DNA of 64,000 nt, taken from the NCBI GenBank assembly GCA_964442745.1, contig CAYUAI010000005.1:44426-108425 (forward strand), written 5' to 3'. Positions within the stretch are counted from its first letter, which is position 1. The number at the start of each line of letters is the position of its first letter. The position numbers were made by a program, and so were the translations under genes. This document shows positions 2,865 to 62,088 of the stretch, in pieces. This stretch comes from an uncultured Chromatiales bacterium. Lineage in GTDB: Bacteria; Pseudomonadota; Gammaproteobacteria; S012-40. The notes beneath the pieces were generated by a model that was given only the letters and a program-made list of their open reading frames with translations, did no database searches and was not told the origin of the DNA.

Positions 2865-3734
2865 TCAATTTTTGCGCCGATTCTCCATCAAGTCATGAAT
2901 TAACGGCGTTAAAATCAACTCCATGGCAAATCCCATTTTACCACCCGGAACCACCAGGGTGTTGGGACGCGACATGAATGAGCCTTGGATCAAATTTAAA
3001 TAATAGGGAAAATCGACCCCAGACGGATCTTGAAAACGAATGACCACAAAACTTTCATCGGGTGTCGGAATATCACGGGCAATAAATGGATTAGAGGTAT
3101 CGACCGTGGGGACCCGTTGAAAATTGATGTGCGTTCTAGAAAACTGAGGGGCAACATAATGTACATAGTCATACATGCGGCGTAAAATGGTATCCGTCAC
3201 GGCTTCAGCTGAGTAACCCCGTTGCGCCGTATCTCGGTGAATTTTCTGGATCCACTCCAGATTAACAATGGGTACCACACCGATTAATAAATCGACATAC
3301 TGGGCAATGTCTACCTCCCCGGACACTACCCCACCATGCAAACCCTCATAGAATAACAAATCACTACCCGGCGGAATCACTTCCCATGGGGTAAATGTTC
3401 CAGGCGCTTGATTGTAGGGTTCACCCTCTTCAATGGAATGTAAATATTTACGCGTCTGACCTGACCCCGAATTACCATATTCACGGAATAATTCACTCAA
3501 TTTTGCAAATTCATTGCCCTCTGGACCAAAATGACTCAGCGTTCGCCCTTCTTCATTGACTTTTTTGATCGCTTCTTTCATTTGTGCCCGATCGTAACGG
3601 TGAAAGCTATCCCCTTCCACAACAATGGGACTAATGCCTTCCCGGCGAAAAATATGCTCAAATGCATTCTTCACCGTGGTGGTCCCAGCACCAGATGACC
3701 CGGTTACCGCAATCACAGGATTTTTTATCGACAT
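2865..3734 (-). CDS. cbbP: Phosphoribulokinase (proteobacterial type)
   Basis: AVTGSSGAGTTT P-loop, EGDSFHRYDR, SHFGPEGN, FYEGLHG, QFSRTHINFQRVPTVDTSNPFIARDIPT. Confidence 0.97.
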   Translation of the reverse strand: MSIKNPVIAVTGSSGAGTTTVKNAFEHIFRREGISPIVVEGDSFHRYDRAQMKEAIKKVNEEGRTLSHFGPEGNEFAKLSELFREYGNSGSGQTRKYLHSIEEGEPYNQAPGTFTPWEVIPPGSDLLFYEGLHGGVVSGEVDIAQYVDLLIGVVPIVNLEWIQKIHRDTAQRGYSAEAVTDTILRRMYDYVHYVAPQFSRTHINFQRVPTVDTSNPFIARDIPTPDESFVVIRFQDPSGVDFPYYLNLIQGSFMSRPNTLVVPGGKMGFAMELILTPLIHDLMENRRKN

Positions 3735-4194
3735 ACCATCTCCTTGTAAGGTTTAAAAATAAAATTTTTCAATAGGTTAAATTAAATTTCGCTACTTTAT
3801 AGTCCGCGAATGCAACCACAAACACAGCACGTCAAATAACGTTTAAGGTAAAAATCTGACAAATCAAAATTGTTATCTTAAACGTTATTTCAACGGGTAT
3901 AAGGAGCGAAAGTATAACCAAATTAACCAAAAGTGGTAGGACAATTTTACCCATAATTTATCTAGGATTAAAACACATATTAATCAGCAATTCTAAATTC
4001 ATAGTGTTTCGAACGAATTTTCAACTTAGTTGGTGATTATGACATCAGAATAAATCAATTAACGACAAGCAAAAATTACTTCCGCGGTATTCAAAAGTCA
4101 CGGACGGTTAAACGGTAAAAAACCATCCGATTTAAAAAACACAGGCAACAACATGCCATTCCCATCGCTCGAGGGCAAAAAATGAGCCGGTTAA

Positions 4195-4540
4195 GCAGGT
4201 ATATCATTTTTGTGCGATCACCGCATCGGCCCAGTCATGAAAGAGTGGTATGAGATTTAGGTTTGCCTACGAGAATAAAACTTAATCCTTGATTTAATAT
4301 CGCTTGGCAAAAAAAAACAGAGAAGGCGCTCAGCCCGACCTCTTCCATCGTGTACTGAATGTGGTCGCCAAAACGTGGGTCCGGAAATTGGGCGGTAATC
4401 GACTTAAAGTAGGCGGTTAACTGATCGATCGGTTGAATTTTGAGCTCAGGTTGAAAAGGGCAGCTCATGGCTTTAGCATGGATAGGGTTTTTGGTGATGT
4501 GATTACCTATATGAACGCTTTTGACGCCATCATCGGGCAA
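4195..4540 (-). mobile_element. Degenerate, internally deleted transposase remnant (ISNCY-like)
   Basis: FPDPRFG..IQYTMEEVGLSAFSVFFCQ joined directly to FILVGKPKSHTTL, then a frameshift continuing as HDWADAV; boundaries approximate. Confidence 0.65.
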
Positions 4541-4817: not shown

Positions 4818-5846
4818 ATGACTGCATTCAAGATCTTAATCATCGGTCCTTCTTGGATCGGTGATATGGTTATGGCTCAGAGCTTATTTCGGCATTTAAA
4901 GCAGCAGAACGAATCCACGCTGATAGACGTGGTTGCTCCGGCCTGGAGTGAGCCATTAATCGCACGTATGCCCGAAGTGCGCCGATCCATAGACATGCCG
5001 TTTGCTCATGGTCAGTTTAAGCCTATTAAACGTTTGCAAATGGGCGCACGTTTAATAAGCGAAAAATATGATCAGGCCATCGTTTTGCCTTACACATGGA
5101 AGGCTGCGCTTCTTCCTTTCGGTGCTAAAATTACCAAGCGCACCGGTTTTGTGGGTGAGGCGCGTTGGGGTTTGCTGAATGATGCCAGGCCTTTAGATAA
5201 AAATAAGCTACCAATGATGGTGCAGCGACATGTTTCGCTGGGTTTCGATAAGGATGTGTTTACTGATCAGCGCTTTCCTAAACCAAAACTTAAAACGAGC
5301 GAAAAGCTCCAACAAGCCGTATTAATCAAGTTAGATTTGCCGGCATTAACTCAGCATATTGTTGTTTTTTGTCCTGGTGCGGAATATGGTCCCGCTAAGC
5401 GTTGGCCGGCTAAGCATTTTGCTACGTTAGCACTTAAGCTGAGTGCCGAAGGTAAAACAATTTGGCTGCTAGGCTCAGAAAAAGATTCAGCGATTGCGCA
5501 CGAGATTAACGAGCTTACCGGTAATAAGTGTGATGACTTAACTGGGCGGACGAGTTTGGAAGATGTTATAGATTTGTTAGCTATGGCGAGTCTTGTCGTG
5601 TGCAATGACTCTGGCTTAATGCATATAGCCGCTGCCGTAGGTGCGCCCATTGTGGCGTTGTATGGCTCTTCAGATCCTGGTTATACCCCGCCATTAGCTG
5701 ATAATGTACAGATAGCTTCGCTTAAGCTGGATTGTAGTCCGTGTTTTAAGAAAGAGTGCCCGCTGGGTCATTATGATTGTCTTAATAATCTATTGGTTGA
5801 TCGGATACAGAGAGATATAGAATTTTCTTTAAGGAGATGTAGATGA
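4818..5846 (+). CDS. waaF: LPS heptosyltransferase II
   Basis: KILIIGPSWIGDMVMAQSL, FCPGAEYGPAKRWP, NDSGLMHIAAA, YGSSDPGYTPP; start ATG4818. Confidence 0.95.
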   Translation: MTAFKILIIGPSWIGDMVMAQSLFRHLKQQNESTLIDVVAPAWSEPLIARMPEVRRSIDMPFAHGQFKPIKRLQMGARLISEKYDQAIVLPYTWKAALLPFGAKITKRTGFVGEARWGLLNDARPLDKNKLPMMVQRHVSLGFDKDVFTDQRFPKPKLKTSEKLQQAVLIKLDLPALTQHIVVFCPGAEYGPAKRWPAKHFATLALKLSAEGKTIWLLGSEKDSAIAHEINELTGNKCDDLTGRTSLEDVIDLLAMASLVVCNDSGLMHIAAAVGAPIVALYGSSDPGYTPPLADNVQIASLKLDCSPCFKKECPLGHYDCLNNLLVDRIQRDIEFSLRRCR

Positions 5847-48928: not shown

Positions 48929-49137
48929 GACATTGATTAAAATACCCATCTAGTTGGTCTTTTTGCCCGTATTTTCCATGGCCACGTGGGTTACTTAGCT
49001 CGCGACATTCTGGTCATGGCTCAGGGTTTGGCGGTAGTCGTATTGCATCCTTTAAATTAAACATCTAAGCCAGCACTTTATACGCAGGTGTCCACCTTGC
49101 GACTGGTTACAAATTCACATTTAAGCTGTCATTTTTC

Positions 49138-49376: not shown

Positions 49377-50570
49377 TTATTGTTCCGTTGGGGCCGGTCG
49401 CTCGCTTGTTTGAGCTGTCAACTGTATGCTTTTGCTATTGCGTATGACTGTCACCAATATTGGTGTGCCGGGGGGGGAATTGGATATCAATTTAACGGCA
49501 TGGCGACTATCCGTCACTTTTTCGTTACCAATTTGAATGATGGCATCGCCGGGTTTTAGGCCAGCCACATCGGCGGGTCCTGAGCGTAAAACGCCAGCAA
49601 CGATGACACCATTGGTATCTGGCAAATTAAAAGAGACAGCCAGTGCTGGACTGATATCTTGCACTTCAATACCCAGCCAGCCCCTGACGACATGACCATT
49701 CTCGATAATTTGTTGAGTGACGTTTTTGACTAGATTCACGGGAATCGCGAAACCGATGCCTTGCGATCCGCCTGAGCGAGAGAAAATGGCGGTATTCACA
49801 CCGACTAAATGACCAAAGGTATTGATTAATGCGCCACCGGAATTGCCAGGGTTGATGGCGGCGTCAGTTTGAATAAAGTTCTCAAAGGTATTAAGGCCCA
49901 GGCGATCCCTGCCCGTGGCGCTGATAATGCCCATGGTTACCGTTTGGCCGACGCCAAATGGGTTGCCAATCGCCAATACCACATCGCCTATTTTTAAATT
50001 GTCTGAAGCCCCTAAGGTGATGGCGGGCAATTCATCCAATTCGATTTTTAATAAGGCGATATCTGATTCTGCATCCACCCCAACGATGGTTGCATTGGCG
50101 CTGCGACCATCACGCAGCGCCACTTGGATTTCTTCGGCGGCTTTAATGACGTGATGATTGGTTAACACGTAACCTTGAGGGCTAATGATAACGCCGGAAC
50201 CCAAACTGTTTTCTTGGCGCTGACGGTGTTTAGGTATCCTATCATCAAAAAAACGATCAAAGCCAGGGTGATTAAAAAAATTAGACTTTCTTGATGGGAT
50301 GGTTTTTGATGTGAAAATGTTGACCACCGCCGAGGCGGCGGCTTCTACTGCACTCGCATAAGAGGCAACGCTTGTTTGATTTTGCTGTCTGGCCGCCACG
50401 GCAAGTTGCTGTGCATTTTCGGCTGAAATTTCGCTAATTTCCACCACATTTTTACCTAAACGAGGCAGGTTTTCCACAAAATACACGACAACAATGCCGC
50501 CTAATAAGCCAATGATAGTGAATAGGATCAGGTTTTTAAGGGTATCTTTTGTATTTTTGCTGATTAGCAT
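49377..50570 (-). CDS. degS: HtrA-family serine protease, single PDZ domain, N-terminal anchor
   Basis: LGSGVI, LTNHHV, DIALL, IQTDAAINPGNSGGAL; one PDZ; divergent from nif3. Confidence 0.88.
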   Translation of the reverse strand: MLISKNTKDTLKNLILFTIIGLLGGIVVVYFVENLPRLGKNVVEISEISAENAQQLAVAARQQNQTSVASYASAVEAAASAVVNIFTSKTIPSRKSNFFNHPGFDRFFDDRIPKHRQRQENSLGSGVIISPQGYVLTNHHVIKAAEEIQVALRDGRSANATIVGVDAESDIALLKIELDELPAITLGASDNLKIGDVVLAIGNPFGVGQTVTMGIISATGRDRLGLNTFENFIQTDAAINPGNSGGALINTFGHLVGVNTAIFSRSGGSQGIGFAIPVNLVKNVTQQIIENGHVVRGWLGIEVQDISPALAVSFNLPDTNGVIVAGVLRSGPADVAGLKPGDAIIQIGNEKVTDSRHAVKLISNSPPGTPILVTVIRNSKSIQLTAQTSERPAPTEQ

Positions 50571-51057
50571 GTGATTTAAGGGTCCTTGGTTGTCGTGACA
50601 AAAAATATCTAATGAGCTAAAAAGCGAGGCTGTTTAAAAAAGCACTGACCGAGTATAGCTTGCTGCCAACTGGCGTTTTTGGGTGTTGCTTTGTTATGGC
50701 CTAAATCTGATTCTTTTCTATCATTTTTCGTGATTAGCGAATAGCATGACTTGTCAGGGTGTTTGGTTGCTTCGTCTGCTCGATAATGCGTCGCAGATGA
50801 CAGTCGGCTTGGTGAATAAACGCGCTGCGCTAGGCCTGTCCTTCAGTACGCGCTTTTGATTGCGCTGAAGCTGAATCATGCTACTTGACTAAGTATAGTG
50901 ATAAAATACCACATGAATTTTATCACTCTATTGTCGCTTTTAATCTGCTGAATGGCAAAACAGCCGATAGCCGATCCTAAATTCACAGCAGAGTATGTGA
51001 AAATAGTGATAGCCACTGAGTTTGTTTTTTTATTCTTTATTATCAGGAGAAATCCAC

Positions 51058-51810
51058 ATGGCAGTGCTGCGAGAGATTTTGGCTTACACGAATCAATTGC
51101 TCGATATTTCGTCGTTTAATGATTATTGTCCCAATGGCTTGCAGGTGGAGGGGGTTTCTGATGTGCAGAAGATCATTACTGGGGTGACGGCTTCTCAAGC
51201 CTTATTGCAACAAGCGGTGGATCAACAAGCCAATGTGGTATTAGTCCATCATGGTTTTTTTTGGCGAGGAGAAGAGGTAACCATTGTCGGGTTGAAAAAA
51301 CAGAAAATTGCTTTACTCGTTGAAAATGATATTTCTTTAGTGGCTTATCACTTGCCGTTGGATGCGCATACTAAGCTTGGCAATAATGCGCAGCTGGCTA
51401 AACAATTGGGCTTGAGCATTGAAGGGCGATTTGGTGTGGCTCCAAGTGTGGGGATGCATGGCAGTCTATTAACAAAACGTAATGGGCAGGAATTAGCGGA
51501 TCATATTGCGCATACTTTGGGCAGAACTCCGTTATGGGTCGGTGAGGCTGACAAGAGTATTTCATCGGTGGCGTGGTGTACCGGCGCCGCTCAAAACTAT
51601 TTTGGTGAAATAATATCCTTAGGCGTGGATGCCTACATCACGGGTGAGGTGTCTGAGCAAAATTATCATATGGCGTTGGAGACAGGGATCAATTTTTATG
51701 CCGCCGGTCATCATGCGACTGAGCGATACGGTGTGCAGGCGTTGGGTCAGCATTTGGCAGAAGCCTTCATGGTTGAGCACCAATATATCGAATTACCAAA
51801 TCCCATCTGA
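51058..51810 (+). CDS. Nif3-like dinuclear metal protein (YbgI / GTP cyclohydrolase 1 type 2 family)
   Basis: DYCPNGLQVEG, VHHG, YHLPLDAH, AAGHHATERYG; AGGAG RBS before ATG51058. Confidence 0.94.
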   Translation: MAVLREILAYTNQLLDISSFNDYCPNGLQVEGVSDVQKIITGVTASQALLQQAVDQQANVVLVHHGFFWRGEEVTIVGLKKQKIALLVENDISLVAYHLPLDAHTKLGNNAQLAKQLGLSIEGRFGVAPSVGMHGSLLTKRNGQELADHIAHTLGRTPLWVGEADKSISSVAWCTGAAQNYFGEIISLGVDAYITGEVSEQNYHMALETGINFYAAGHHATERYGVQALGQHLAEAFMVEHQYIELPNPI

Positions 51811-51972
51811 AGCCAATTGAGTGGCGCACTTGCATACTCAGTAATCCATTCTATCGACTTTAAATTTTGTTGATAAAAACGCTTGATGGAGGCGATTACT
51901 AACCGATTGTAAAAATAGAATTTGATGGCTTTAGGGGAGAGGCTGAAATTAAAGTACCTATATTGCGCCGGA

Positions 51973-52018
51973 TTTTTGCCCGTCGTTTCCTCGGTCCCGT
52001 GGAAACGACGGGCAAAAA
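51973..52018. repeat. Perfect 18-bp inverted repeat (REP-like); related half-copy at 48960-48989
   Basis: TTTTTGCCCGTCGTTTCC-10 nt-GGAAACGACGGGCAAAAA; T-run precedes and A-run follows, so not a terminator layout. Confidence 0.75.
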
Positions 52019-52262
52019 GACCAGCGAATGGGTATTTTAATCAATGCCTCATTCCTTAGCGACGGTGATGTCTCATTATTATGCAGTAATTTTCTCTCAA
52101 TACGCCTGGGGTTTGCCGCAAAAATATACGGTCAACGTATTCAGGGGAAATAAATATTGTGGCAGAACGTGTTTTATTTTACCTTTACGGGGCTGCGTGT
52201 TTTATTTGGACAGTAGAACAAATACTGTGAGACAGGCTGGGAGGAATAATTGACAATTTTCG

Positions 52263-52292
52263 TTGACAATTTGCTTTAACTTCGTCTAGCAT
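52263..52292 (+). promoter_or_regulatory. Candidate sigma70 promoter of the ACIII operon
   Basis: TTGACA-18 bp-TAGCAT. Confidence 0.45.
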
Positions 52293-52609
52293 CGGTCAGC
52301 ACATCAGCGCTACAACAAGCAAGTATTGATAATTAATCAGAATATGCTGATATTATAGCGCTGTTGAATGATAGGGAGGAACTCTATGTTCAATCGTGTT
52401 GGTATCGACTCATGAATTAAATTTGTTCGTGTGTGCATCAAGTTTTACTTATCTTGCCGAAATTACTATTTGTAATTTTCTGGCGACTTAACATAATTGG
52501 GATTTTCAGGACTCGGCTAAAAACCGGATAAGGTTTTTGGTAGGTTTTTTTTTGAAATTTGTTATGTTTGTTTACCGTAATACATAAACAAATGCTTTGA
52601 GGGTGGGAA

Positions 52610-53257
52610 ATGCATTTTACCAAAATACATCGAGCTTACGCCGCTGGTTGCGGATATTTGTCCCGTTTATTTGAATCGGGTATTAAAAAAACTTCTCTTT
52701 CACTCACGGTCTTAATTGTATTTTGCTTAATGATGCCATTGGTTGTCTTCGCTGAATTGCCCGTGCCGGCGCATATTAAGCCACCGGTGGGTACGCACGT
52801 TGGTGAGGATGTACCACAGCCCATTGAGTTTCCACACGATATTCATACTAAAGTCAATAAGATTAATTGTATGTACTGCCATACCTATGCGCGCCGCAGT
52901 AAAGTGGCTGGCATTCCACCAACCAGCAAATGTTTGGGGTGTCACAAAATCATAGCTACCGACCGCGATCGTATTAAAAAATTGACTGAGTATTGGGACA
53001 AAGGCGAATCACCACGATGGAAAAAAGTGCATGATCTGCCTGACTATGTGCATTTTACCCACGAGAAGCATTTAAAGCGTTTTGTTTTTGATGCGGATTT
53101 TCCGGTGGAAGATGTTGAGCAAGTCTGTGGTTTATGCCATGGGGAAGTGAGAGAGATGACAGTGGCACACAAGGTAAAGCCATTGAATATGGGGTTTTGT
53201 CAGCGCTGTCATGAGGCAAATGGCGGTCCTGGGGATTGCTGGAAGTGCCATAAATAA
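52610..53257 (+). CDS. actA: Alternative complex III pentaheme cytochrome c
   Basis: Five CxxCH (CMYCH, CLGCH, CGLCH, CQRCH, CWKCH); QPIEFPHDIH, AGIP, WKKVHDLPDYVHFTHEKH, PLNMGFC. Confidence 0.92.
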   Translation: MHFTKIHRAYAAGCGYLSRLFESGIKKTSLSLTVLIVFCLMMPLVVFAELPVPAHIKPPVGTHVGEDVPQPIEFPHDIHTKVNKINCMYCHTYARRSKVAGIPPTSKCLGCHKIIATDRDRIKKLTEYWDKGESPRWKKVHDLPDYVHFTHEKHLKRFVFDADFPVEDVEQVCGLCHGEVREMTVAHKVKPLNMGFCQRCHEANGGPGDCWKCHK

Positions 53258-53313
53258 GTGCTTTTAATTAAGAGCTTAATTTATGCGGGATACGCTAATA
53301 AAACACAGGGTGG

Positions 53314-55536
53314 ATGGCTATGAATAGCGTAAAAGTTAATCGTAGAAAATTTTTAAAAATGTTAGGCTGGGGTGGTGCTGGCACAGCGTTAGCTGGCTGT
53401 GATTTGCCCACGACAGTGACCTTGGAAGAAGGTAAAGAGGAAGTTGTTGCCTACGTATTGCCGGAAGAATATGTGATTCCTGGTATTGGCGTCTGGTATG
53501 CTTCAACGTGTATCCAATGTGCTGCCGGCTGTGGTTTGCATGGGCGCGTGCGGGAAGGTCGGGTGCTCAAGGTAGAAGGCCATCCTGATTCACCGATCAA
53601 TCATGGTAAAACGTGCATGATGGGGCAAGCGGGAGTGCAAGCACACTATAATCCGGATCGGATTACGTCGCCGATGATGCGCAAAGCCGGTCGTATGCAA
53701 GCGGTATCCTGGGATGAGGCGCTGGCTGAAATCAACAAAAAGATTGGTGCGGACTCAGACTTGAAAGGCGAGCGGTTTGCTTGGTTTACTGGCAGCGTGA
53801 GTGGGCATCAGGCGGTATTGGTTTCAGACTTAGCCAAGCAATTGGGTGCTGGCGATCACTATGCCCACGAAATGATACACTCAACCGTTTGGCAATCCGT
53901 ATGTCAAGAGATGTTAGGTGATTCAATGCCGCGGCTTCGCTTTGATAAAGCACAAGTTGTTTTATCTTTTGGTGCGGACTTTTTAGGCACTTGGGTTTCA
54001 CCTGTTCACTTTTCGGGAGAATACGCAAAATTTCGATCGGGCGATCGTGGTGTTTTAATCCAAGTCGAACCTAAGATGACGCTCACTGGCGGCAATGCCG
54101 ACCTATGGATGCCTGCCAAGCCGGGGACGGAAGGTGTTTTAGCTTATGGTCTGGCTAATTTTATCATTGACCGTGGTTGGAATAAGGTTCATGTGCCCGA
54201 TGTCATTCGACAATCTTTAGCGCAATATAATGTTGATGCCGTCAGTGAAATAACTGAAATTCCGGTATCGAAAATTAAGCGCATCGCCAGTTTCTTAACG
54301 GAAAGAGCGCCGAGTTTGATCTTGGCCGGCGCGTCAACAGAAGGGCATGAAAATGGTTTTGATGCCGTCTCTGCGGTGATGTTGCTGAATATTATTATGG
54401 GCAACATTGGTGAGACCATCGAACCAGGTAATCACTTTCCTGAAGCGAGTTTGCATGCCAAGCCAGGTAACACCAAGAGCGTTATTGATTTTGCCAAGGC
54501 CGTGAGTGAAAAAGCCTATGACGTGGTTTTCTTTTATGGCAGCAATCCGGTGTTTACCGCGCCGAAAACGCTGGGTCTTAGTGATAGCTTAGAGACGGTT
54601 CCCTTTAAGGTTGCATTTGCTCAGTTTCCTGATGAAACCACCATGAAAGCCGATGTGATTTTACCGATTTTTTCTAACATGGAAGATTGGGGTTCGCATG
54701 TGGCGGCGTATCAGGCGAATGAGACGATCATAAGTTTACAGCAGCCGTTGATGGAGCCACTTTATAAGGAAACCCGAGGTTTTGGTGATGTGATCTTGAG
54801 TCTTCTGCAGATGCGCGATAAGGAATATGGTAATTTCAAAGATTACTATGCGTATTTAGTCGCGGCAATGACCAATATGCCTGGGGCTGATGTGGCTGAT
54901 ACGCCAAGAGCGAAGCAAGATTACTGGGAGAATGTATTGCAGCATGGGCAAGTGAAAGTATCGCCGATGCAAAACAAGTTACGGCCGAAAATGCTAGTGG
55001 CAAATTTGAAGGCATCGTCAGATACCGGTGAATATAGTATGCATTTAGCGCCTTCGGCACGCCTGGGACTTTGGGATGGGCGGCACGCCAATCTTCCTTG
55101 GTTACAGGAAGCGCCAGACCAAATTAGCAAAGTGGTGTGGGGTTCTTGGGCAGAGTTGCATCCGAGTACCGCCGGTAAGTTGGGTGTGAAGAACGGTGAT
55201 TACGTGATGATATCATCAGAGAATGGCTCGATTGAAACGCAAGTTTATGTGCATAAAGGGATTCGTCAGGATGTGGTTTCCGTGCCCATGGGGCAGGGCC
55301 ATGAGGAATACGGGCGTTATGCGAAAAATCGGGGTGTGAGCCCTTTTACCATACTCTCAGCAAAAACCGAGCAAAAAACCGGAGAGCTGGCGTTATATGC
55401 CACCAAGGTGAAAGTAGCTAAGGTTAGGAAATCTGAAGTATTGGTGAAAATGGGAGGGAGTGAAACCCAGCTGGGACGTAAACTGGTTCAGACGGTTTCT
55501 GCTGACAGTTTGCGGCGTAGCGAAGGGGAGGTGTAA
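53314..55536 (+). CDS. actB1: ACIII subunit B1, molybdopterin-oxidoreductase-like; predicted Tat lipoprotein
   Basis: NRRKFLK Tat motif + LAGC lipobox; CIQCAAGC...C; GADFLGTW; DGRHANLPWLQEAPD signature of ActB. Confidence 0.88.
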   Translation: MAMNSVKVNRRKFLKMLGWGGAGTALAGCDLPTTVTLEEGKEEVVAYVLPEEYVIPGIGVWYASTCIQCAAGCGLHGRVREGRVLKVEGHPDSPINHGKTCMMGQAGVQAHYNPDRITSPMMRKAGRMQAVSWDEALAEINKKIGADSDLKGERFAWFTGSVSGHQAVLVSDLAKQLGAGDHYAHEMIHSTVWQSVCQEMLGDSMPRLRFDKAQVVLSFGADFLGTWVSPVHFSGEYAKFRSGDRGVLIQVEPKMTLTGGNADLWMPAKPGTEGVLAYGLANFIIDRGWNKVHVPDVIRQSLAQYNVDAVSEITEIPVSKIKRIASFLTERAPSLILAGASTEGHENGFDAVSAVMLLNIIMGNIGETIEPGNHFPEASLHAKPGNTKSVIDFAKAVSEKAYDVVFFYGSNPVFTAPKTLGLSDSLETVPFKVAFAQFPDETTMKADVILPIFSNMEDWGSHVAAYQANETIISLQQPLMEPLYKETRGFGDVILSLLQMRDKEYGNFKDYYAYLVAAMTNMPGADVADTPRAKQDYWENVLQHGQVKVSPMQNKLRPKMLVANLKASSDTGEYSMHLAPSARLGLWDGRHANLPWLQEAPDQISKVVWGSWAELHPSTAGKLGVKNGDYVMISSENGSIETQVYVHKGIRQDVVSVPMGQGHEEYGRYAKNRGVSPFTILSAKTEQKTGELALYATKVKVAKVRKSEVLVKMGGSETQLGRKLVQTVSADSLRRSEGEV

Positions 55537-55538
55537 CA

Positions 55539-56384
55539 ATGTCTTTTAAAAATATTATAGAGAACTTTTCGCATTACCGTAGAGATGCTGAGGACGGTGG
55601 TCATCACGATTATGAGCATCGCTGGGGGATGGCTATTGATCTTAATCTGTGTACTGGCTGTAATGCGTGTTCGACGGCGTGTTATGCGGAAAATAATTTG
55701 GCCGTGGTTGGTAAAGAGCGCTTTGAAAAAGGTCAGGCGATGCACTGGATGCGCATTGAGCGTTATTGGGATGAGCATAGTGATAGTGATTATCCCGAGC
55801 AGGGTGCGCAATTTTTGCCAATGATGTGTCAACAATGTGGTGCGGCGACTTGCGAACCTGTTTGTCCCGTGGCGGCGACCTATCATACGCCTGATGGGTT
55901 GAATGCACAGGTTTATAATCGCTGTATCGGGTCTCGTTATTGTAGTAATAACTGTCCTTTCCGGGTTCGCTATTTTAATTTCTGGTCGTATTATGAAGAT
56001 TCATGGCCAGAGCCTCTGGAGCAGCAGTTAAACCCTGATTTGTCGGTACGCGACAAAGGTGTGATGGAAAAATGCACTTTCTGCATTCAGCGAATTCGCG
56101 TGGCAAAAGATAAAGCGGGACGGGAGGATCGCTTGCTCTCCGATGGTGAGTTCTCGACAGCGTGTGCTCAGGCCTGCCCAACCAGTGCGATTACCTTTGG
56201 CGATACCATGGATCCTACCAGTCAGGTGAGCCAGGCTTGGAAAAAGCATCAAGTGGCGCGTGGTCCTTATACACAAAAGAAAGAGAAAGATGACGCCGAG
56301 TTGCGTGGGTATCGCATTTTTGAAGAATTAAATGTGGATCCCTCCGTGATGTATTTGGAGCGTATACGAGAAACTGAAGTATAA
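55539..56384 (+). CDS. actB2: ACIII subunit B2, iron-sulfur protein (three [4Fe-4S] + one [3Fe-4S] pattern)
   Basis: WGMAIDLNLCTGCNACSTACYAENN, CQQC..CEPVCP, RCIGSRYCSNNCP, GVMEKCTFC, TACAQACP. Confidence 0.92.
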   Translation: MSFKNIIENFSHYRRDAEDGGHHDYEHRWGMAIDLNLCTGCNACSTACYAENNLAVVGKERFEKGQAMHWMRIERYWDEHSDSDYPEQGAQFLPMMCQQCGAATCEPVCPVAATYHTPDGLNAQVYNRCIGSRYCSNNCPFRVRYFNFWSYYEDSWPEPLEQQLNPDLSVRDKGVMEKCTFCIQRIRVAKDKAGREDRLLSDGEFSTACAQACPTSAITFGDTMDPTSQVSQAWKKHQVARGPYTQKKEKDDAELRGYRIFEELNVDPSVMYLERIRETEV

Positions 56385-56513
56385 GCCGGCGATCAAAATT
56401 ATTTTAACATTGACTCGCCTATTTCCCGCCCTTTGGCGTGACAGCTTCGCTGTGCCTTGAAGGGCAAAAAATAGGCTTCGCAAATTTTGTTACAATAATT
56501 TTAGGCTCGCTTA
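56382..56513. repeat. 132-bp imperfect palindrome (MITE-like) between actB2 and actC
   Basis: Nested arms taagc..aaaattatt.taaca / tgtta.aataatttt..gctta; gcctattt / aaataggc; gccctt / aagggc; acagc / gctgt. Confidence 0.75.
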
Positions 56514-56563
56514 CTTAGTTTGAGTGTTTAGGGCATGGGTTAGATAAACAGATAGGGAACACC

Positions 56564-57994
56564 ATGAGTCTCGATAATGAAAAAGATATAAACGAAAACC
56601 TGAAATGGTCTCGGATTAATGAGGACATTCTTCGTTCAATGGAGAATCCTCGCCGAGCCTATTGGGTCACTTTTATTGTTTGTTCGGCAATGTTTGCATG
56701 TGCCATTGCTGCGGAAATTTATCAGTACAGATATGGGATGGGAAGCGCCAATTTAAATAACCCACACATGTGGGATATGTATATTGCGACCTTCGTATTT
56801 TGGATTGGTATGAGCCATGCGGGCACCTTGTTGTCAGCCATTTTGCATATTATCAACGCCCAATGGCGTAAGCCCATCTATCGCTTTGCAGAAGCCATGA
56901 CGACATTCTCGTTGATGACGGCGGGTTTCTTCCCGATGATCCATTTGGGTCGGGTATGGAATCTCTATTGGGTGCTTCCTTATGTGAGTGATCGTGGAAT
57001 CTGGCCGAATTTTCGCTCACCGTTGGTGTGGGACGCCTTCGCGATCAGTACTTATCTGTCAGCATCAGCATTATTCTTGTTCATTGGCATGATTCCTGAT
57101 TTAGCGATTGCTCGTGATCATGGTCGGGGATGGCGCAAGAAAGTCTATGGCATTCTGTCCTTAGGGTGGCGTGGTGATGATCGTCAATGGCGAAATTTCC
57201 GTAAAACCTATTTGCTGATGGCGTGTTTTTTGATTCCATTAGCGATCTCGGTGCATTCCATCGTATCCTCCGATTTTGCGATGTCCATTATGCCGGGCTG
57301 GCATATTACAACCTTTCCTCCTTACTTTGTGGCTGGCGCCTTATATTCAGGTTGTGCGGCGATCATGACGCTCTTCATTTGTTTGCGATATTTTTTCCGC
57401 ATGGAAGAATACATGACCCTGTCGATCATGGAAAAAACATGTAAGTTGACGTTTGCAATTGCCATGGTTTGGACATACCTCAACCTGGTTGAATTTGCAG
57501 CCACTTGGTATGGCCATAATATGTATGACAAAGAGTTGTTAATTGCTAAAGCAGTCGGGCCATACTCGTTTATTTTCTGGACGATGCTATTTTGTGGGGT
57601 CGTTGCGCCGTTTGCGCTGTGCTTCAGGAAACTGAGGCGGCACATGCCAAGTATGTTTGTGTTATCGATTGTCTTGCAGGTCGGTATGTTTGTTGAGCGA
57701 TGGATGATTGTTGCTCCGACACTCGCAATGTCACATCAACCGTTTCAGCATGATGTGATGTGGGGGAGTGTCATTGAATGGGCGATTGTGTTTGGTAGTT
57801 TTGGTTGGTTTGGTATCTTGTTCCTCGTGTTTGTGAAGATCTTTCCATGTGTATCAATGTATGAAGTGAAAGAGCTGGTTTATCACATTAAGCGTGAAAG
57901 CGAAGCGGAAGAGCAAGCTGAAAAAAGTAAAAGTACCAAAACAGCGACGGGTGAAGACAAACCCACCGGTTCACCTGGAATGGAGGGAGCGTAA
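56564..57994 (+). CDS. actC: ACIII subunit C (NrfD/PsrC-family quinol-binding membrane subunit)
   Basis: FVFWIGMSHAGTLLSAIL, RFAEAMT, IHLGRVW, NFRSPLVWDAFAISTY, VHSIVSSDFA, FPPYFVAGA. Confidence 0.94.
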   Translation: MSLDNEKDINENLKWSRINEDILRSMENPRRAYWVTFIVCSAMFACAIAAEIYQYRYGMGSANLNNPHMWDMYIATFVFWIGMSHAGTLLSAILHIINAQWRKPIYRFAEAMTTFSLMTAGFFPMIHLGRVWNLYWVLPYVSDRGIWPNFRSPLVWDAFAISTYLSASALFLFIGMIPDLAIARDHGRGWRKKVYGILSLGWRGDDRQWRNFRKTYLLMACFLIPLAISVHSIVSSDFAMSIMPGWHITTFPPYFVAGALYSGCAAIMTLFICLRYFFRMEEYMTLSIMEKTCKLTFAIAMVWTYLNLVEFAATWYGHNMYDKELLIAKAVGPYSFIFWTMLFCGVVAPFALCFRKLRRHMPSMFVLSIVLQVGMFVERWMIVAPTLAMSHQPFQHDVMWGSVIEWAIVFGSFGWFGILFLVFVKIFPCVSMYEVKELVYHIKRESEAEEQAEKSKSTKTATGEDKPTGSPGMEGA

Positions 57995-58524
57995 TGAGTG
58001 AGCGTAATGTGCTTGCCATGTTTGATAATTTCGATGATGCGATTGATGTCATTAACGGAATAAAAAAACATGAGGTAGCGGGTGTTGATATTGACGATGT
58101 GACAGTTTTATCACCGATTGAACATCCCGATATTGATGACATTCTCGAAGGACGGCCGGTGAATATTCAGAAATTTACCTTTGCCGGTGCCTTGTTTGGT
58201 CTATCGTTCGGGTTTTTATTTCTGGCTTCTGCGCAGGCCAGCTTTCTGGTGCAGCCGCAAGGAGGTAAGCCTGTTATTCCATTGCCTACCAACTTTGTCT
58301 TGATGTATGAAATGCTGATTTTCTTTGCGGTGTGGACCACGGTTATCACATTTACCGTGATGGCGGGTTTATTTAAATCGCGAGGCAATTTATATACAGA
58401 GCGATTGACGGTGGATGGCGTCGGGATCTTGATCGAAGGGCTCGATGAAAGCAAACTAGGCCCCTTGAAAAGCTACTTCAAGGATAATAAGGCCATCGAA
58501 ATTCGAGAAGAGAAAGCAAAATGA
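57994..58524 (+). CDS. actD: ACIII subunit D (DUF3341)
   Basis: VLAMFD, LSPI, two TM helices flanking GGKP, YEMLIFF; position after actC. Confidence 0.85.
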   Translation: MSERNVLAMFDNFDDAIDVINGIKKHEVAGVDIDDVTVLSPIEHPDIDDILEGRPVNIQKFTFAGALFGLSFGFLFLASAQASFLVQPQGGKPVIPLPTNFVLMYEMLIFFAVWTTVITFTVMAGLFKSRGNLYTERLTVDGVGILIEGLDESKLGPLKSYFKDNKAIEIREEKAK

Positions 58525-59069
58525 GAATGAAAGATGTAACTTTCGTTGTTGCTTTGGCGATCACGCCCACGCTCGCGTTTGCGTGGCCTTGGTCTCAAGA
58601 TATGATGAATCAACCCAGCATCAAACCTCAGGAAGGGCCGCCAGCGGCTTTTCCTGCTCGGTCGATTCCTACCACAGGACAACCCACTAAGGTGAAAGAT
58701 CGACAAGAGGCGGAAAGTTTAGATAATCCGATGGCAGTGAGCGAAGCCTCACTCAAGCAAGGGCGAACGCTATATCGCATCATTTGCAGTGCTTGTCATG
58801 GTTTGACAGGTAAAGCCGATGCCCCTGTGGGTTTAAAAATGGGGGCGATTGACTTAACCAGCGAGTATGTGCAAACCAATTTAACGGAGGGTTGGATTTA
58901 CGGGACAATCACTTTTGGTGGCGCCATCATGCCAGCTTATGGTCGCCCTTCTCGGGAGAGTGGAGGGTCTAACGATCTGACGCCGGAAGAACGTTGGCAT
59001 GTTGTCAACTATGTGAGAAATGGCTTGGTAAAAGAATCAGCGCAAACCAGTCAGGCGAGCGCCCAATAA
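58521..59069 (+). CDS. actE: ACIII subunit E, monoheme cytochrome c
   Basis: DMMNQPSIKPQE, single CSACH, IMPAY, ERWHVVNYVR. Confidence 0.88.
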   Translation: MRMKDVTFVVALAITPTLAFAWPWSQDMMNQPSIKPQEGPPAAFPARSIPTTGQPTKVKDRQEAESLDNPMAVSEASLKQGRTLYRIICSACHGLTGKADAPVGLKMGAIDLTSEYVQTNLTEGWIYGTITFGGAIMPAYGRPSRESGGSNDLTPEERWHVVNYVRNGLVKESAQTSQASAQ

Positions 59070-59091
59070 TTAACAAAGGGTAGGAATTAAT

Positions 59092-60129
59092 ATGGAAGGG
59101 TTTGGAAGCTGGTCGGTACTCACGACTAATTTTCTAATCGTCCTATACATTGCTTTGAACGGGGTCACTTTAGCGGCCCTCGTTCACTTAGCGAATGGAA
59201 AATGGCGATTTAAATTTCGTTACTTAGCGTGCTCGTTAGCAGCATTATTTCCCGTAGCGTTTGTCTTGTTGATTATTTTGCTCCTCAATGGGGAATCAAC
59301 ATTTCAGTGGTTAGCACATGCCCACGATGCCGATGCGCATTTACCCGGTTGGCATAACTATACTTTTCTGGTGACACGCCAAATCGTTGGTTTTTTCGTG
59401 ATCGCAGGGTTGTATGGTTTATTCATTAAACACCAGTATTTGGCAACCATTGATCCATCCTATAGTGCGCAACGCCAGTTCCGCAATATTGCATTATTAA
59501 TTCCTTTTGGTTATGTGCTTTATGCAACGATGGTGGCCTGGGATTTCGAGATGACCATGGTGCCAAATTGGCATAGTGCAAGCTATGGCGTTTATCATTT
59601 TATTAGTAACTTCCATTTCTTCCTGGCATTTTTTGCCATCTTCCTATTTGTGTTGGTGGGGACTGGGCGATTACGCAAGGAAGTGCCGCACTATGTGTTT
59701 AACTTTCTCGCACAAATGATGTTGGCATTCACCATTTTGTGGACCTACTTTTTCTTTACCCAATACCTGATTATGTGGTATGGGCGATTGCCGGAGGAGA
59801 TTGGGCGATTTGATAACATGATGGACTATGGTTTAGGGCCGATTTGGTGGACGTTTGTGACATTGAAATTCATTATTCCGTTATGTGCACTGATTTTCAC
59901 GTACAATCGACATACGCCAAAGGTGATTGTAATAATCGCCGCCAGTATTTGTTTGGGCACTTGGTTAGAGCGTTATACCTGGATTTCTGGTTCAATCGAT
60001 CCACAGTTCTACCATATCCCCATGAGTTCAGGCTTTGATTGGATCGTGACATTGATCGTCTTTGGGGTGGCATTTGCTGCCGTGCGCTGGTCAGTCTACA
60101 AGTATGGTTTGTTGAAATCTCCAACATGA
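59092..60129 (+). CDS. actF: ACIII subunit F (ActC paralogue, membrane)
   Basis: WDFEMTMVPNWHSASYG, LWTYFFFTQYLIMWYGRLPEE, WLERY. Confidence 0.87.
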   Translation: MEGFGSWSVLTTNFLIVLYIALNGVTLAALVHLANGKWRFKFRYLACSLAALFPVAFVLLIILLLNGESTFQWLAHAHDADAHLPGWHNYTFLVTRQIVGFFVIAGLYGLFIKHQYLATIDPSYSAQRQFRNIALLIPFGYVLYATMVAWDFEMTMVPNWHSASYGVYHFISNFHFFLAFFAIFLFVLVGTGRLRKEVPHYVFNFLAQMMLAFTILWTYFFFTQYLIMWYGRLPEEIGRFDNMMDYGLGPIWWTFVTLKFIIPLCALIFTYNRHTPKVIVIIAASICLGTWLERYTWISGSIDPQFYHIPMSSGFDWIVTLIVFGVAFAAVRWSVYKYGLLKSPT

Positions 60130-60154
60130 CAAGGCATTGAATGAACACATTATG

Positions 60155-60184
60155 GGCGGATAGGGTAACCTATCCGCCTTTTTT
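60155..60184 (+). terminator. Intrinsic terminator closing the ACIII operon
   Basis: GGCGGATAGG-gtaa-CCTATCCGCC followed by a T-run. Confidence 0.9.
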
Positions 60185-60236
60185 GTCGGTGACGTTAAGC
60201 TGTTTTTTTTTGCTCAGTTTGTTCGCGTTGTGGTGA

Positions 60237-60264
60237 GGAGGTTTTCCATTCTCGGGCAGGCTCC
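60237..60264. repeat. 28-bp hairpin repeat family B, copy 2
   Basis: GGAGGTTTTCCATTCTCGGGCAGGCTCC. Confidence 0.7.
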
Positions 60265-60341
60265 TTGTGGTTGAGCAAGTATTCACCTCTCTTTTTATAA
60301 AATAAATTTAAATAGATATCCTATCAAGCTCGCCTATTTGC

Positions 60342-60524
60342 TATACTCAGCACGGTTATAAAATGGGGTTTTCGTGCCCAGATTTGGGCTAGATTGAATC
60401 GATCTGATGGCATAAAGCCGCAAGAATCGTTGTTCTATTCTGAGGACTTTGTAACGGAAGGTCGGTCATAATATCGCCTGAAAATGGGAGGCGAAAATGA
60501 TAGTTTATGGCCGTGCTGAGTATA
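60342..60524. mobile_element. MITE family A, apparently complete 183-bp copy
   Basis: Terminal inverted repeats TATACTCAGCACGG(TT)ATAAA / TTTAT(GG)CCGTGCTGAGTATA, TA at both ends, no coding capacity. Confidence 0.8.
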
Positions 60525-60607
60525 TATTTACGATAATCTACATTTTGTTGCCAAAACGGTTATAATTTGTGTCGATGTAACTTTGTATCTTTAGGAGATG
60601 TTTTAAA

Positions 60608-61234
60608 ATGGCTCTTGCTACTAATAAACGGGCGGTTATGACGTTGTATTCAGGGTCAATCGATACATATAGCCATCGTACACGTATTGTTTTGGCAGAG
60701 AAAAATGTCACCTTTGATATTCATGAAGTAGAGCCAGGTAATCTTCCAGAAGACTTGATTGATTTAAATCCTTACAATTCGGTTCCTACGTTAATCGATA
60801 GGGATTTGGTGTTGTATGATTCCAGAGTGATTATGGAATATCTGGATGAGCGTTTTCCCCATCCGCCATTAATGCCCGTTGATCCCGTGTCAAGAGCGCG
60901 AAGTCGTTTAATGTTGCATCGGATTGATCATGATTGGTATCGCTTAGTTGCCGCATTGGAAGGGGAAGATGGCGCCGCAAAAGATAATGCCCGCAAAGAG
61001 CTACGCGATAGCATAACATCCATTGCACCCATATTTGATGCTAAGCCATATTTTATGAGTGATGAGTTTTCATTAATCGATTGCAGTGTTGCACCTTTGT
61101 TATGGCGGCTTGGTCATTATGGGGTCGAATTGTCTCCGGCAGCAAAAGCGGTGGAAGCTTATGCTGAACGATTATTTGAGCGTAATTCAATGGTGCAAAG
61201 TTTGACTGAAGCGGAAAAAGAGTTAAGGATGTAA
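60608..61234 (+). CDS. sspA: Stringent starvation protein A
   Basis: NKRAVMTLYSG, SHRTRIVLAEK, NPYNSVPTLIDRDL, EYLDERFPHPPLMPVDPV. Confidence 0.96.
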   Translation: MALATNKRAVMTLYSGSIDTYSHRTRIVLAEKNVTFDIHEVEPGNLPEDLIDLNPYNSVPTLIDRDLVLYDSRVIMEYLDERFPHPPLMPVDPVSRARSRLMLHRIDHDWYRLVAALEGEDGAAKDNARKELRDSITSIAPIFDAKPYFMSDEFSLIDCSVAPLLWRLGHYGVELSPAAKAVEAYAERLFERNSMVQSLTEAEKELRM

Positions 61235-61339
61235 TAAATAGCCTGCTTGGCAATTAAGCGGAGAGGCTTTAAATATACCCAGTGCTGCCTCCTTTAAATT
61301 AAGTATCTTATTAAGCCCAATGTAAAAGGTGTGCTAGCC

Positions 61340-61450
61340 GTCGGGTGCATTATAGGCACCCAGCAATGGTGAAGAGGGCAATTCACGATTGATGAATACG
61401 GAAGCATGGATTGAGGTTAAACGCCCGACGGTGCGTCTAATGCGCCCGAC
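61340..61450. repeat. Inverted REP-like pair (GTCG variant) between sspA and sspB
   Basis: GTCGGGTGCATTATAGGCACC and, on the opposite strand, GTCGGGCGCATTAGACGCACC. Confidence 0.7.
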
Positions 61451-61538
61451 AAAAATCAAACGCTTAGGCTTTGAAAAATTCAGTAAAATGCCTTATGCAC
61501 CAAACGATTCGGTGGGTTATTTAAAGGATACGGTACGA

Positions 61539-61566
61539 GGAGGCTTTCCATTCTTGGGCAGCCTCC
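61539..61566. repeat. 28-bp hairpin repeat family B, copy 3
   Basis: GGAGGCTTTCCATTCTTGGGCAGCCTCC. Confidence 0.7.
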
Positions 61567-61677
61567 TAATTTGGGTATTTTTTGTCGTTATTGGCCAATA
61601 ATTGGCGAAAAGATAAGTCATTAAATCGATTGCAATGGTGTTAAATATTTGCTTAAATTTTTACATTTTGGTGCGCT

Positions 61678-62088
61678 ATGAATGATCAGCTACAAATGAC
61701 TTCAAGTCGTCCTTATTTGATGAGGGCGTTAAATGACTGGATTCTTGATAACAAAATGACGCCTTATATTGTGGTGGATGCAACGCACAAAGATGTACAA
61801 GTGCCCCTGCAGTATGTTGACGGTGGAAAAATTGTGCTTAATCTTAGTCCCTCGGCCGTCCGAGATTTGCTTATCGATAATCGGCGTGTATTATTTTCCG
61901 CCCGCTTTGGTGGGGTCTCCATGGATGTGATTGTGCCTATTCAAGCGGTGTTAGCTATTTATACGAAAGAAAGTGGTCAGGGAATGATATTTAATGGGTC
62001 GCTAAATGAAATTAATAACTCCATTACGGATGAATCTAAACAGTTGAGCAAGAAAGTGGTGAAACCCAATCTGACATTAGTCAAATAA
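61678..62088 (+). CDS. sspB: ClpXP adaptor / stringent starvation protein B
   Basis: RPYLMRALNDWILDN..TPY, IVLNLSPSAV, ARFGG, C-terminal PNLTLVK. Confidence 0.96.
   Translation: MNDQLQMTSSRPYLMRALNDWILDNKMTPYIVVDATHKDVQVPLQYVDGGKIVLNLSPSAVRDLLIDNRRVLFSARFGGVSMDVIVPIQAVLAIYTKESGQGMIFNGSLNEINNSITDESKQLSKKVVKPNLTLVK

Follow-up and report, generated by a model that had tools for sequence, protein, structure and literature searches.

The DNA considered here, referred to as the window, is a stretch of 64,000 nucleotides from an uncultured Chromatiales bacterium (genome G000, contig C5, positions 44426-108425). It contains the genes for an alternative complex III (ACIII) between degS-nif3 and sspAB, an interval that in relatives is the slot of petABC, the genes for the cytochrome bc1 complex (bc1). 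This ACIII is probably a complete, apparently functional and long-standing resident that was inserted upstream of bc1, after which the bc1 of the slot was lost, and it is probably not a bc1 substitute. In the first-pass annotation of this DNA, the arrangement was taken as an in-place replacement of bc1 by ACIII. This was not borne out, as a search of the genome for petABC found an intact operon on another contig, C2, and bc1 genes are thus present in the genome. Because bc1 is intact elsewhere, ACIII has been added beside bc1 and has not replaced it. Genome G000 is a metagenome-assembled genome (MAG) of 206 contigs, which is 97.9% complete and 0.8% contaminated, and DNA of the window is present in public runs labelled hydrothermal vent metagenome. 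All coordinates are window positions unless another contig is named.

The domains PF00033 (244.7 bits) and PF02167 each have one locus in G000, and these loci are adjacent on contig C2. The operon has the order cytochrome c-petA-petB-petC, with a gene for a Lon-like protease on one side and purH-fis-dusB-prmA on the other. PetA (189 amino acids) carries a twin-arginine translocation (Tat) signal, the Rieske motifs CTHLGC and CPCHGS and the domains PF10399 and PF00355, and it passes the Rieske model TIGR01416 (Rieske_proteo) with 192.5 bits (cut-off 97.4). In PetB (418 amino acids; PF00033 and PF00032) the PEWY motif is intact, and PetC (220 amino acids; PF02167) has one CXXCH motif. Judged from its sequence, this operon is a set of intact genes for a bc1 complex with its cofactor motifs. 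Operons of this kind are referred to here as P-type, and the canonical petABC linked to sspAB as slot-type.

Directly before petA lies a gene for a monohaem cytochrome c of 102 amino acids (C2 11011-11319, locus L004). This gene is kept in the same position in 10 of 10 further P-type loci of the family, and no such gene was detected beside slot-type petABC or petABC of another class in the loci examined. The cytochrome may be a dedicated redox partner of the divergent bc1. Two or three copies of the P-type operon are present in four genomes, G010 (L031, L032), G067, G072 and G094. Elsewhere on contig C2, two tandem genes of the sigma-70 family (3657-4529 and 4849-5706; 290 and 285 amino acids) follow ftsY-ftsE-ftsX; both have regions 2 and 4 only and look like a duplicated rpoH-type sigma factor.

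That ACIII replaced bc1 by function as well as by position, leaving an organism that respires without bc1, is considered very improbable. Such a replacement would agree with the missing sspAB-linked petABC of the window interval and with the ACIII-bearing relatives in which bc1 was not found (see below). It is contradicted by the intact petABC of the same genome, by the P-type operons of 9 other genomes of the family, which in several cases also adjoin purH-fis-dusB, and by the 12 loci in which ACIII stands alongside slot petABC.

The ACIII operon and its place in the window

The gene order degS-nif3-actA-B1-B2-C-D-E-F-terminator-sspA-sspB of the first-pass annotation was confirmed by the open reading frames, the family matches and the terminator hairpin. 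The upstream anchor is a serine protease gene of the degS/htrA family on the minus strand (49377-50570), which has Trypsin_2 and PDZ domains and matches the DegS and Do-family NCBIfam models below their cut-offs. It is preceded by his and tatABC genes. The next gene, nif3 (51022-51810, plus strand), belongs to the DUF34/NIF3 family (PF01784, 227 bits; TIGR00486, 197.7 bits, cut-off 130.55). The seven act genes are co-directional on the plus strand (52610-60129), and downstream of them, on the same strand, are sspA for stringent starvation protein A (60608-61234; NF007016, 318.7 bits, cut-off 314) and sspB for the ClpXP specificity-enhancing factor (61678-62088; PF04386, 112 bits; NF008769, 160.7 bits, cut-off 135), followed by a divergent aminopeptidase gene and cca. 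Between tatC and cca, the open reading frames and family matches include no oxidase genes, as had been noted before, and no further act gene follows actF.

The membrane-anchored pentahaem cytochrome c ActA (52610-53257) has an N-terminal hydrophobic anchor and five CXXCH motifs (Cytochrome_C7, 30.9 bits). The molybdopterin-oxidoreductase-like subunit ActB1 (53314-55536; 740 amino acids; PF00384, PF04879 and PF01568) carries a Tat motif, RRKFLK, at residue 10, a lipobox-like motif (LAGC) and a Cx2Cx3C motif. The iron-sulfur (polyferredoxin) subunit ActB2 (55539-56384; 281 amino acids, of which 15 are cysteines) matches 4Fe-4S dicluster families and, below their cut-offs, the QrcC and DsrO models. 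ActC (56564-57994; PF03916, 92.5 bits) is the NrfD-like quinol-interacting membrane subunit, and it matches chain C of the solved ACIII structures 8k9e, 6f0k, 6lod and 6btm with E-values of 1e-105 to 8e-101. The ACIII-specific membrane subunit ActD (57994-58524; PF11821, 92 bits, cut-off 25.7) is the sole match to this family in the genome. The monohaem cytochrome c ActE (58521-59069; Cytochrome_CBB3 and Cytochrom_C families) has a signal peptide, one CXXCH and two cysteines in all, with no lipobox cysteine. ActF (59092-60129), a second NrfD-like membrane subunit, has no Pfam match and matches 6f0k_F (E 5.9e-21) and three further solved ActF chains; it is a distant paralogue of ActC (21% identity, E 1e-9).

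The features by which an ACIII is recognized are therefore all found in the cluster: ActC, ActD, a pentahaem ActA with a monohaem ActE, a two-module ActB and ActF. In the fused ActB chains 6lod_B, 6f0k_B, 8k9e_B and 6btm_B (933-1039 amino acids), it is the N-terminal part that ActB1 matches, which shows that ActB is truly split in the window. The split-ActB cluster described in the first-pass annotation is thus genuine, with matches for ActC, ActD and ActF and with separate genes for ActB1 and ActB2. As far as its genes tell, it is a complete, apparently functional and ordinary ACIII operon. A split ActB had been linked there to neutrophilic Fe(II) oxidisers, and the literature search brought no confirmation of this.

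The solved complexes (PDB 6f0k, 6btm, 6lod/6loe and 8k9e), which we take to be those of Rhodothermus marinus, Flavobacterium johnsoniae, Roseiflexus castenholzii and Chloroflexus, share with the window the subunit set ActA-ActF, including the pentahaem ActA and the monohaem ActE. They differ in having ActB fused (933-1039 amino acids) where the window has two genes (740 and 281 amino acids). In addition, the ActE of the window has no lipobox cysteine, its operon has no act gene after actF and no adjoining oxidase genes, and bc1 is present in the same genome. The operon may be partly duplicated in one relative (L129), where actF is followed by another ActC-like gene (ActC matches at 5084 and 9099).

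It is extremely unlikely that the cluster encodes another NrfD/PsrC-type member of the complex iron-sulfur molybdoenzyme-like group, such as a Qrc-type quinone reductase. The Qrc of sulfate reducers (NF041781-NF041783) has homologous multihaem, molybdopterin-like and iron-sulfur subunits together with an NrfD-type membrane subunit, and among the NCBIfam models, ActA, ActB1 and ActB2 are indeed closest to QrcA, QrcB and QrcC. All of these matches are far under the family cut-offs (73 vs 180, 291 vs 440 and 225 vs 400 bits, respectively), and ActC and ActF are best matched by solved ACIII chains. ActD, ActE and ActF are present in the window and, to our knowledge, are not part of Qrc.

The interval in related genomes and the two bc1 lineages

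The interval was compared in 15 genomes of the same family and in 45 other genomes of the class; one genome flagged as unpublished (G054) is included in the family and class tallies of ActD and cytochrome b, and no claim hangs on it. Of the 34 canonical petB loci at class level, 26 were examined. In 23 of these 26, petC adjoins sspA or sspB, and petA is directly preceded by nif3 in four (L041, L056, L058 and L060, with the order nif3-petABC-sspAB) and by degS in six more. The premise of the first-pass annotation that relatives keep petABC with sspAB in the interval now held by ACIII is therefore sound. It was also right that ACIII fills this interval in the window and that the interval no longer contains the canonical petABC linked to sspAB; what did not stand is the replacement of bc1. 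In another class of the phylum, nif3 is also directly upstream of petABC (L167 and L179), so this linkage is older than the Gammaproteobacteria.

All 15 family genomes have ActD, compared with 4 of the 45 other class-level genomes, and 13 of the 15 have cytochrome b, the two family genomes with no match being 95% and 80% complete. The order degS-nif3-ACIII-sspAB is found on a single contig in seven family genomes, and another four agree with it as far as their contigs reach. In two others, G007 and G014, the genes after actF are petA-petB-petC, with sspA-sspB-aminopeptidase-cca behind them, and the same is seen in G058, which belongs to another family. A second contig of G014 carries his-tatC-degS-nif3-actA...actD and has a 151-bp overlap of 100% identity with the first. 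With these two contigs put together, G014 reads his-tat-degS-nif3-ACIII-petABC-sspAB-aminopeptidase-cca. In G005, nif3-ACIII and an inverted petBC-sspAB are about 13 kb apart on one contig.

A wider sample was taken from a pattern scan with an ActC alignment, namely the best 80 of 586 relatives, from 79 genomes. All of these best 80 are from uncultured MAGs with labels that are nearly all Gammaproteobacteria, some of them Tenderia, Thiohalomonadales or Chromatiales. Upstream of ACIII, 67 of the 80 loci could be read, with nif3 in 40, degS only in 5 and other genes in 22. Downstream, 65 could be read, and here sspAB follows in 15, canonical petABC in 12 (in 9 of them running into sspAB), another petABC in 1 and other genes in 37. 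Two of the last group were annotated and show genes for DUF3530, rpe, a HAD phosphatase and trpE, in L142 followed by trpG, trpD and trpC. Two MAGs labelled Thalassospiraceae, an alphaproteobacterial family, have a gammaproteobacterial-type ACIII (L146 and L147; ActC 68-73% identical), by transfer or in a mislabelled bin, and in L147 the ACIII is followed by petABC of a third kind.

ACIII adjoins slot petABC in 12 of the 80 loci, as well as in G007 and G014. ACIII therefore arrived in one event, and petABC was lost in another. The gain of ACIII does not coincide with the loss of petABC, and this coexistence speaks against the one-step replacement proposed earlier. In a tree of ActB2 and ActC (87 rows), all loci linked to sspAB or petABC fall in one clade of 41 rows with a support of 100 (Shimodaira-Hasegawa-like approximate likelihood ratio test, SH-aLRT). 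Loci that keep petABC occur in three of the four subclades of this clade. The 12-row subclade of the window (support 99) contains no locus with slot petABC, and L085, which has no petABC, is nested among loci that keep it. From these placements, slot petABC has been lost at least three times.

The ancestor would have had the order his-tatABC-degS-nif3-petABC-sspAB and would belong to a large group of uncultured sulfur-, iron- or electrode-oxidising Gammaproteobacteria, which includes the family of the window, the Tenderiales and related MAGs. The act operon would have been inserted between nif3 and petA, and the canonical petABC of the slot would have been deleted afterwards in several lineages, including that of the window. 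This ancestral order is proposed because of the joined contigs of G014, the arrangement in G005, and the fact that lineages differ in having ACIII linked to one or the other side of the slot.

The bc1 on contig C2 and the bc1 of the slot differ clearly. The PetB of the window genome shares only 50-55% identity with slot PetB, compared with 73-78% for PetB from those family genomes that have no slot petABC. In an unrooted PetB tree of 44 rows, the P-type forms a clade of 13 rows on a long branch (SH-aLRT 100), with 11 rows from the family and two from G046 and G049, whereas the slot PetB of the family (G005, G007, G012 and G014) is nested among canonical gammaproteobacterial PetB. Tenderia-labelled MAGs also have a P-type PetB, with an identity of 71-74%. 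When the 15 PetB sequences of the family were constrained to a single clade, the log-likelihood difference (delta lnL) was 312, with a p-value of 7.8e-05 in the approximately unbiased test (p-AU), by which an origin of the P-type bc1 within the family is rejected. Among 401 genomes of the phylum (including G479, which is flagged as unpublished and on which no claim hangs), the best non-self matches of the P-type PetB belong to another class, at 57-62% identity. A grouping of the P-type with another class on a branch with 100% support was withdrawn, as that branch is uninformative in an unrooted tree of three clades; the difference in identity remains.

There is only a slight chance that the C2 operon is the old slot operon, which moved and then evolved fast, so that one bc1 lineage would be present and not two. 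Relocation would leave no family genome with both bc1 types, and none was seen. The rejected single clade of the 15 family PetB argues against it, as do the wider range of the P-type clade, which takes in other families (G046, G049) and the Tenderia-labelled MAGs, and its closer identity to the best match of another class (57-62%) than to the canonical PetB of its own class (about 50-55%). Moreover, G092 has a P-type PetB together with fragments that score as slot-type.

The PetB types of the 79 ACIII-bearing genomes, assigned by identity to the PetB of the window genome, were sorted by what follows ACIII. Where this is sspAB (15 genomes), 12 have the P-type, none the slot-type, none both types and 3 no PetB. 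Where slot petABC follows (12 genomes), all 12 have the slot-type, with no P-type, no genome with both and none with no PetB. With other genes downstream (37 genomes), 18 have the P-type, 1 the slot-type (G005), none both and 18 neither, and the single genome with another petABC has the slot-type, with no P-type, and counts neither as both nor as none. The contig is cut after ACIII in the remaining 14 genomes (P-type 5, slot-type 6, both 1, none 2). Genomes that lost the slot bc1 thus appear to have either a divergent second bc1 elsewhere, as in G000, or no bc1. The loss of slot petABC tracks the presence of another bc1 lineage, and not the presence of ACIII.

In 23 of the 79 ACIII-bearing genomes no PetB match was found, and PF00033 was likewise found in 0 of 23. 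These genomes include whole subclades of ACIII. In one of them, G529 (L142), ACIII lies on a contig of 3.02 Mb in an assembly of 3.1 Mb. Five were tested further (G529, G525, G531, G532 and G535), with PF02167 (cytochrome c1) in 0 of 5 and haem-copper oxidases in 5 of 5. The 23 genomes are candidate lineages in which ACIII is the only complex III, and replacement of bc1 by ACIII may hold in such other lineages. Quite possibly, though somewhat short of probably, the interval preserves the traces of a three-way sorting of complex III within one radiation of Gammaproteobacteria, in which a single insertion of ACIII upstream of petABC left lineages with ACIII and the slot bc1, with ACIII and a second bc1, or with ACIII alone, through at least three independent losses of the slot bc1.

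Repeats and transcription signals around the act genes

The act operon ends with an intrinsic-terminator-like hairpin (60154-60179, plus strand; 11 pairs, 7 of them G-C, a loop of 4, then TTTTTT), which begins 25 nt past the stop codon of actF. The best sigma-70-like promoter match upstream of actA is TTGACA-18-TAGCAT (52263-52292, plus strand; 10/12), which is a consensus match only, and the total count of such sites in the region is not above that of shuffles. No FNR/Anr box was found upstream of actA in 51811-52609; the window has 9 matches, a number equalled in 7 of 100 shuffles.

Multiple dispersed repeats are present in the region, with copy numbers given as the maximum of overlapping whole-genome BLASTN matches, the element itself included. 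One is located at 48931-49001 (up to 13 matches) and another in the nif3-actA spacer of 799 bp (51926-52060; up to 14), which has a near-perfect 22-nt hairpin at 51973-52018 (inverted repeats I2, I4 and I6). A third lies within the operon in the actB2-actC spacer (56385-56520; up to 14), which measures 179 bp in the window vs about 50-65 bp in relatives; this repeat also occurs in run X6 (record 28), in a strain that is diverged. In the spacer between actF and sspA (478 bp vs about 130-210 bp in relatives) lies an element resembling a miniature inverted-repeat transposable element (MITE) at 60335-60528, with up to 21 matches and a 33-nt inverted repeat at its ends (I3, 60342-60374 / 60492-60524). 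Finally, a repeat at 61277-61539 (up to 10 matches, the best at 89% over 263 nt) lies in the spacer between sspA and sspB (61235-61677), which is 443 bp long vs about 10-40 bp in relatives. The first-pass annotation had placed repeats on both flanks; multi-copy repeats are indeed found in the flanking spacers, and the further repeat inside the operon goes beyond that description. In public runs, contig depth shows 3- to 13-fold spikes at the repeats and is even across degS to sspB; among these runs, none that contains the DNA is listed as RNA.

A recent horizontal arrival of ACIII in the interval, carried or favoured by flanking mobile repeats, is very unlikely. The multi-copy MITE-like repeats in the flanking spacers and within the operon would suit such an arrival, as would the slightly higher G+C content of the act genes (0.45-0.49 vs 0.40-0.44 in the flanks). 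Against it, ACIII has the same placement in 15 of 15 family genomes, and nif3 is upstream at 40 of the 80 ActC loci. The spacers of relatives are shorter at the sites where the window genome has repeats, so the repeats are probably later than ACIII. In addition, the protein distances of ACIII are correlated with those of the flanking TatC, DegS and Nif3 (Mantel r 0.555 over 37 loci, a value that 0 of 2000 permutations reached), which fits co-inheritance of ACIII and its flanks, though related genomes share everything.

Some points weigh against ACIII as a functional, long-standing resident that was inserted before the slot bc1 was lost and that now accompanies a second bc1. The complete order nif3-ACIII-petABC-sspAB was found on no single contig among the loci sampled, and in the 12 loci that retain petABC the genes upstream of ACIII are never nif3, being other genes or a contig end. 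The join in G014 is based on an end overlap of 151 bp, and a branch in the assembly graph would look alike. As the MAG consists of 206 contigs, a mis-binning of the contig with bc1 is conceivable. The unrooted PetB tree of three clades fits the P-type as an ancient paralogue and as a transfer alike. Public (Logan) contigs end at the repeats, so the nif3/actA and actF/sspA junctions are not independently bridged, and the repeat between actB2 and actC could alter the expression of the operon.

Electron flow and lithoautotrophy

Of the sox and dsr genes named for a check in the first-pass annotation, SoxB (849 bits) is encoded in G000, as is RuBisCO (457 bits), and the dsrA model gave no match above its cut-off in the genome. 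A gene for a high-potential iron-sulfur protein (HiPIP) was not found in the genome by PF01355, from which a c-type cytochrome seems the likelier periplasmic partner of ACIII. The complex would link the quinone pool to periplasmic c-type cytochromes via ActC, the iron-sulfur clusters of ActB2 and the haems of ActA and ActE. The sole full-length haem-copper oxidase subunit I is encoded on contig C3 (109698-110945, L064) and is a distant relative of CcoN (224.6 bits, cut-off 583); its partner is an atypical CcoO-like protein of 318 amino acids, and canonical ccoN was not seen in the genome.

The G000 cell would have two quinol:cytochrome c oxidoreductases, with bc1 activity coming from the P-type operon on C2. 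One complex would plausibly serve downhill respiration and the other a reverse flow from cytochrome c to quinone, driven by the proton motive force, that supplies NAD(P)H; either complex might have either role. An uphill flow to NAD(P)+ would be needed because a thiosulfate-oxidising autotroph feeds in electrons at the level of cytochrome c.

Co-occurrence of ACIII and bc1 is already known from the Tenderiales and from iron oxidisers. According to the available text of Eddie et al. (2017, PMC5371394), the expression of ACIII in Ca. Tenderia clusters with that of NADH:quinone oxidoreductase, and the expression of bc1 with that of cbb3 and succinate dehydrogenase. ACIII has been proposed as a route of reverse electron transport in the Tenderiales/Ca. 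Tenderia, as far as the available texts go (PMC5371394; 10.1101/2022.05.06.490989), and the preprint, in its accessible part, describes ACIII together with bc1 in the Tenderiales and relatives, with two mutually exclusive cytochrome c1 orthogroups (bioRxiv 10.1101/2022.05.06.490989). The window genome resembles 'Candidatus Tenderia electrophaga' and the Tenderiales in several respects: Tenderia-labelled ActC is 68-71% identical and also lies behind his-tat-degS-nif3, both complexes are present, and the 'unique cyt c1' orthogroup, as it appears in that accessible part, fits the split into P-type and slot-type. It differs in belonging to another family and in having sspAB after actF, where DUF3530-rpe-gph-trpE follows in L134, the one Tenderia-labelled locus with an annotated downstream side.

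In the available text of a pangenome study of the Gallionellaceae, bc1 and ACIII often overlap within genomes (PMC10734462). These iron oxidisers are likewise described there as lithoautotrophs with bc1 and ACIII, both discussed as routes to the quinone pool for the formation of NADH (PMC10734462). In the literature texts available, supplementary tables aside, no mention was found of ACIII between nif3 and petABC/sspAB or of repeated losses of the slot bc1.

The synteny places the arrival of ACIII before the loss of the canonical bc1, and it sorts related genomes into those with the slot bc1, with the divergent bc1 or with none, which provides a framework for studying forward and reverse electron flow in lithoautotrophs. 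It also shows, as a caution, that a gene occupying the slot of another gene is no proof of functional replacement without a search of the whole genome. If the three-way sorting is true, lineages with ACIII alone would be natural knock-outs, in which ACIII is the sole quinol-cytochrome c link in lithoautotrophic Gammaproteobacteria, and the divergent bc1 would not be redundant but a specialised partner, for instance in reverse electron flow.

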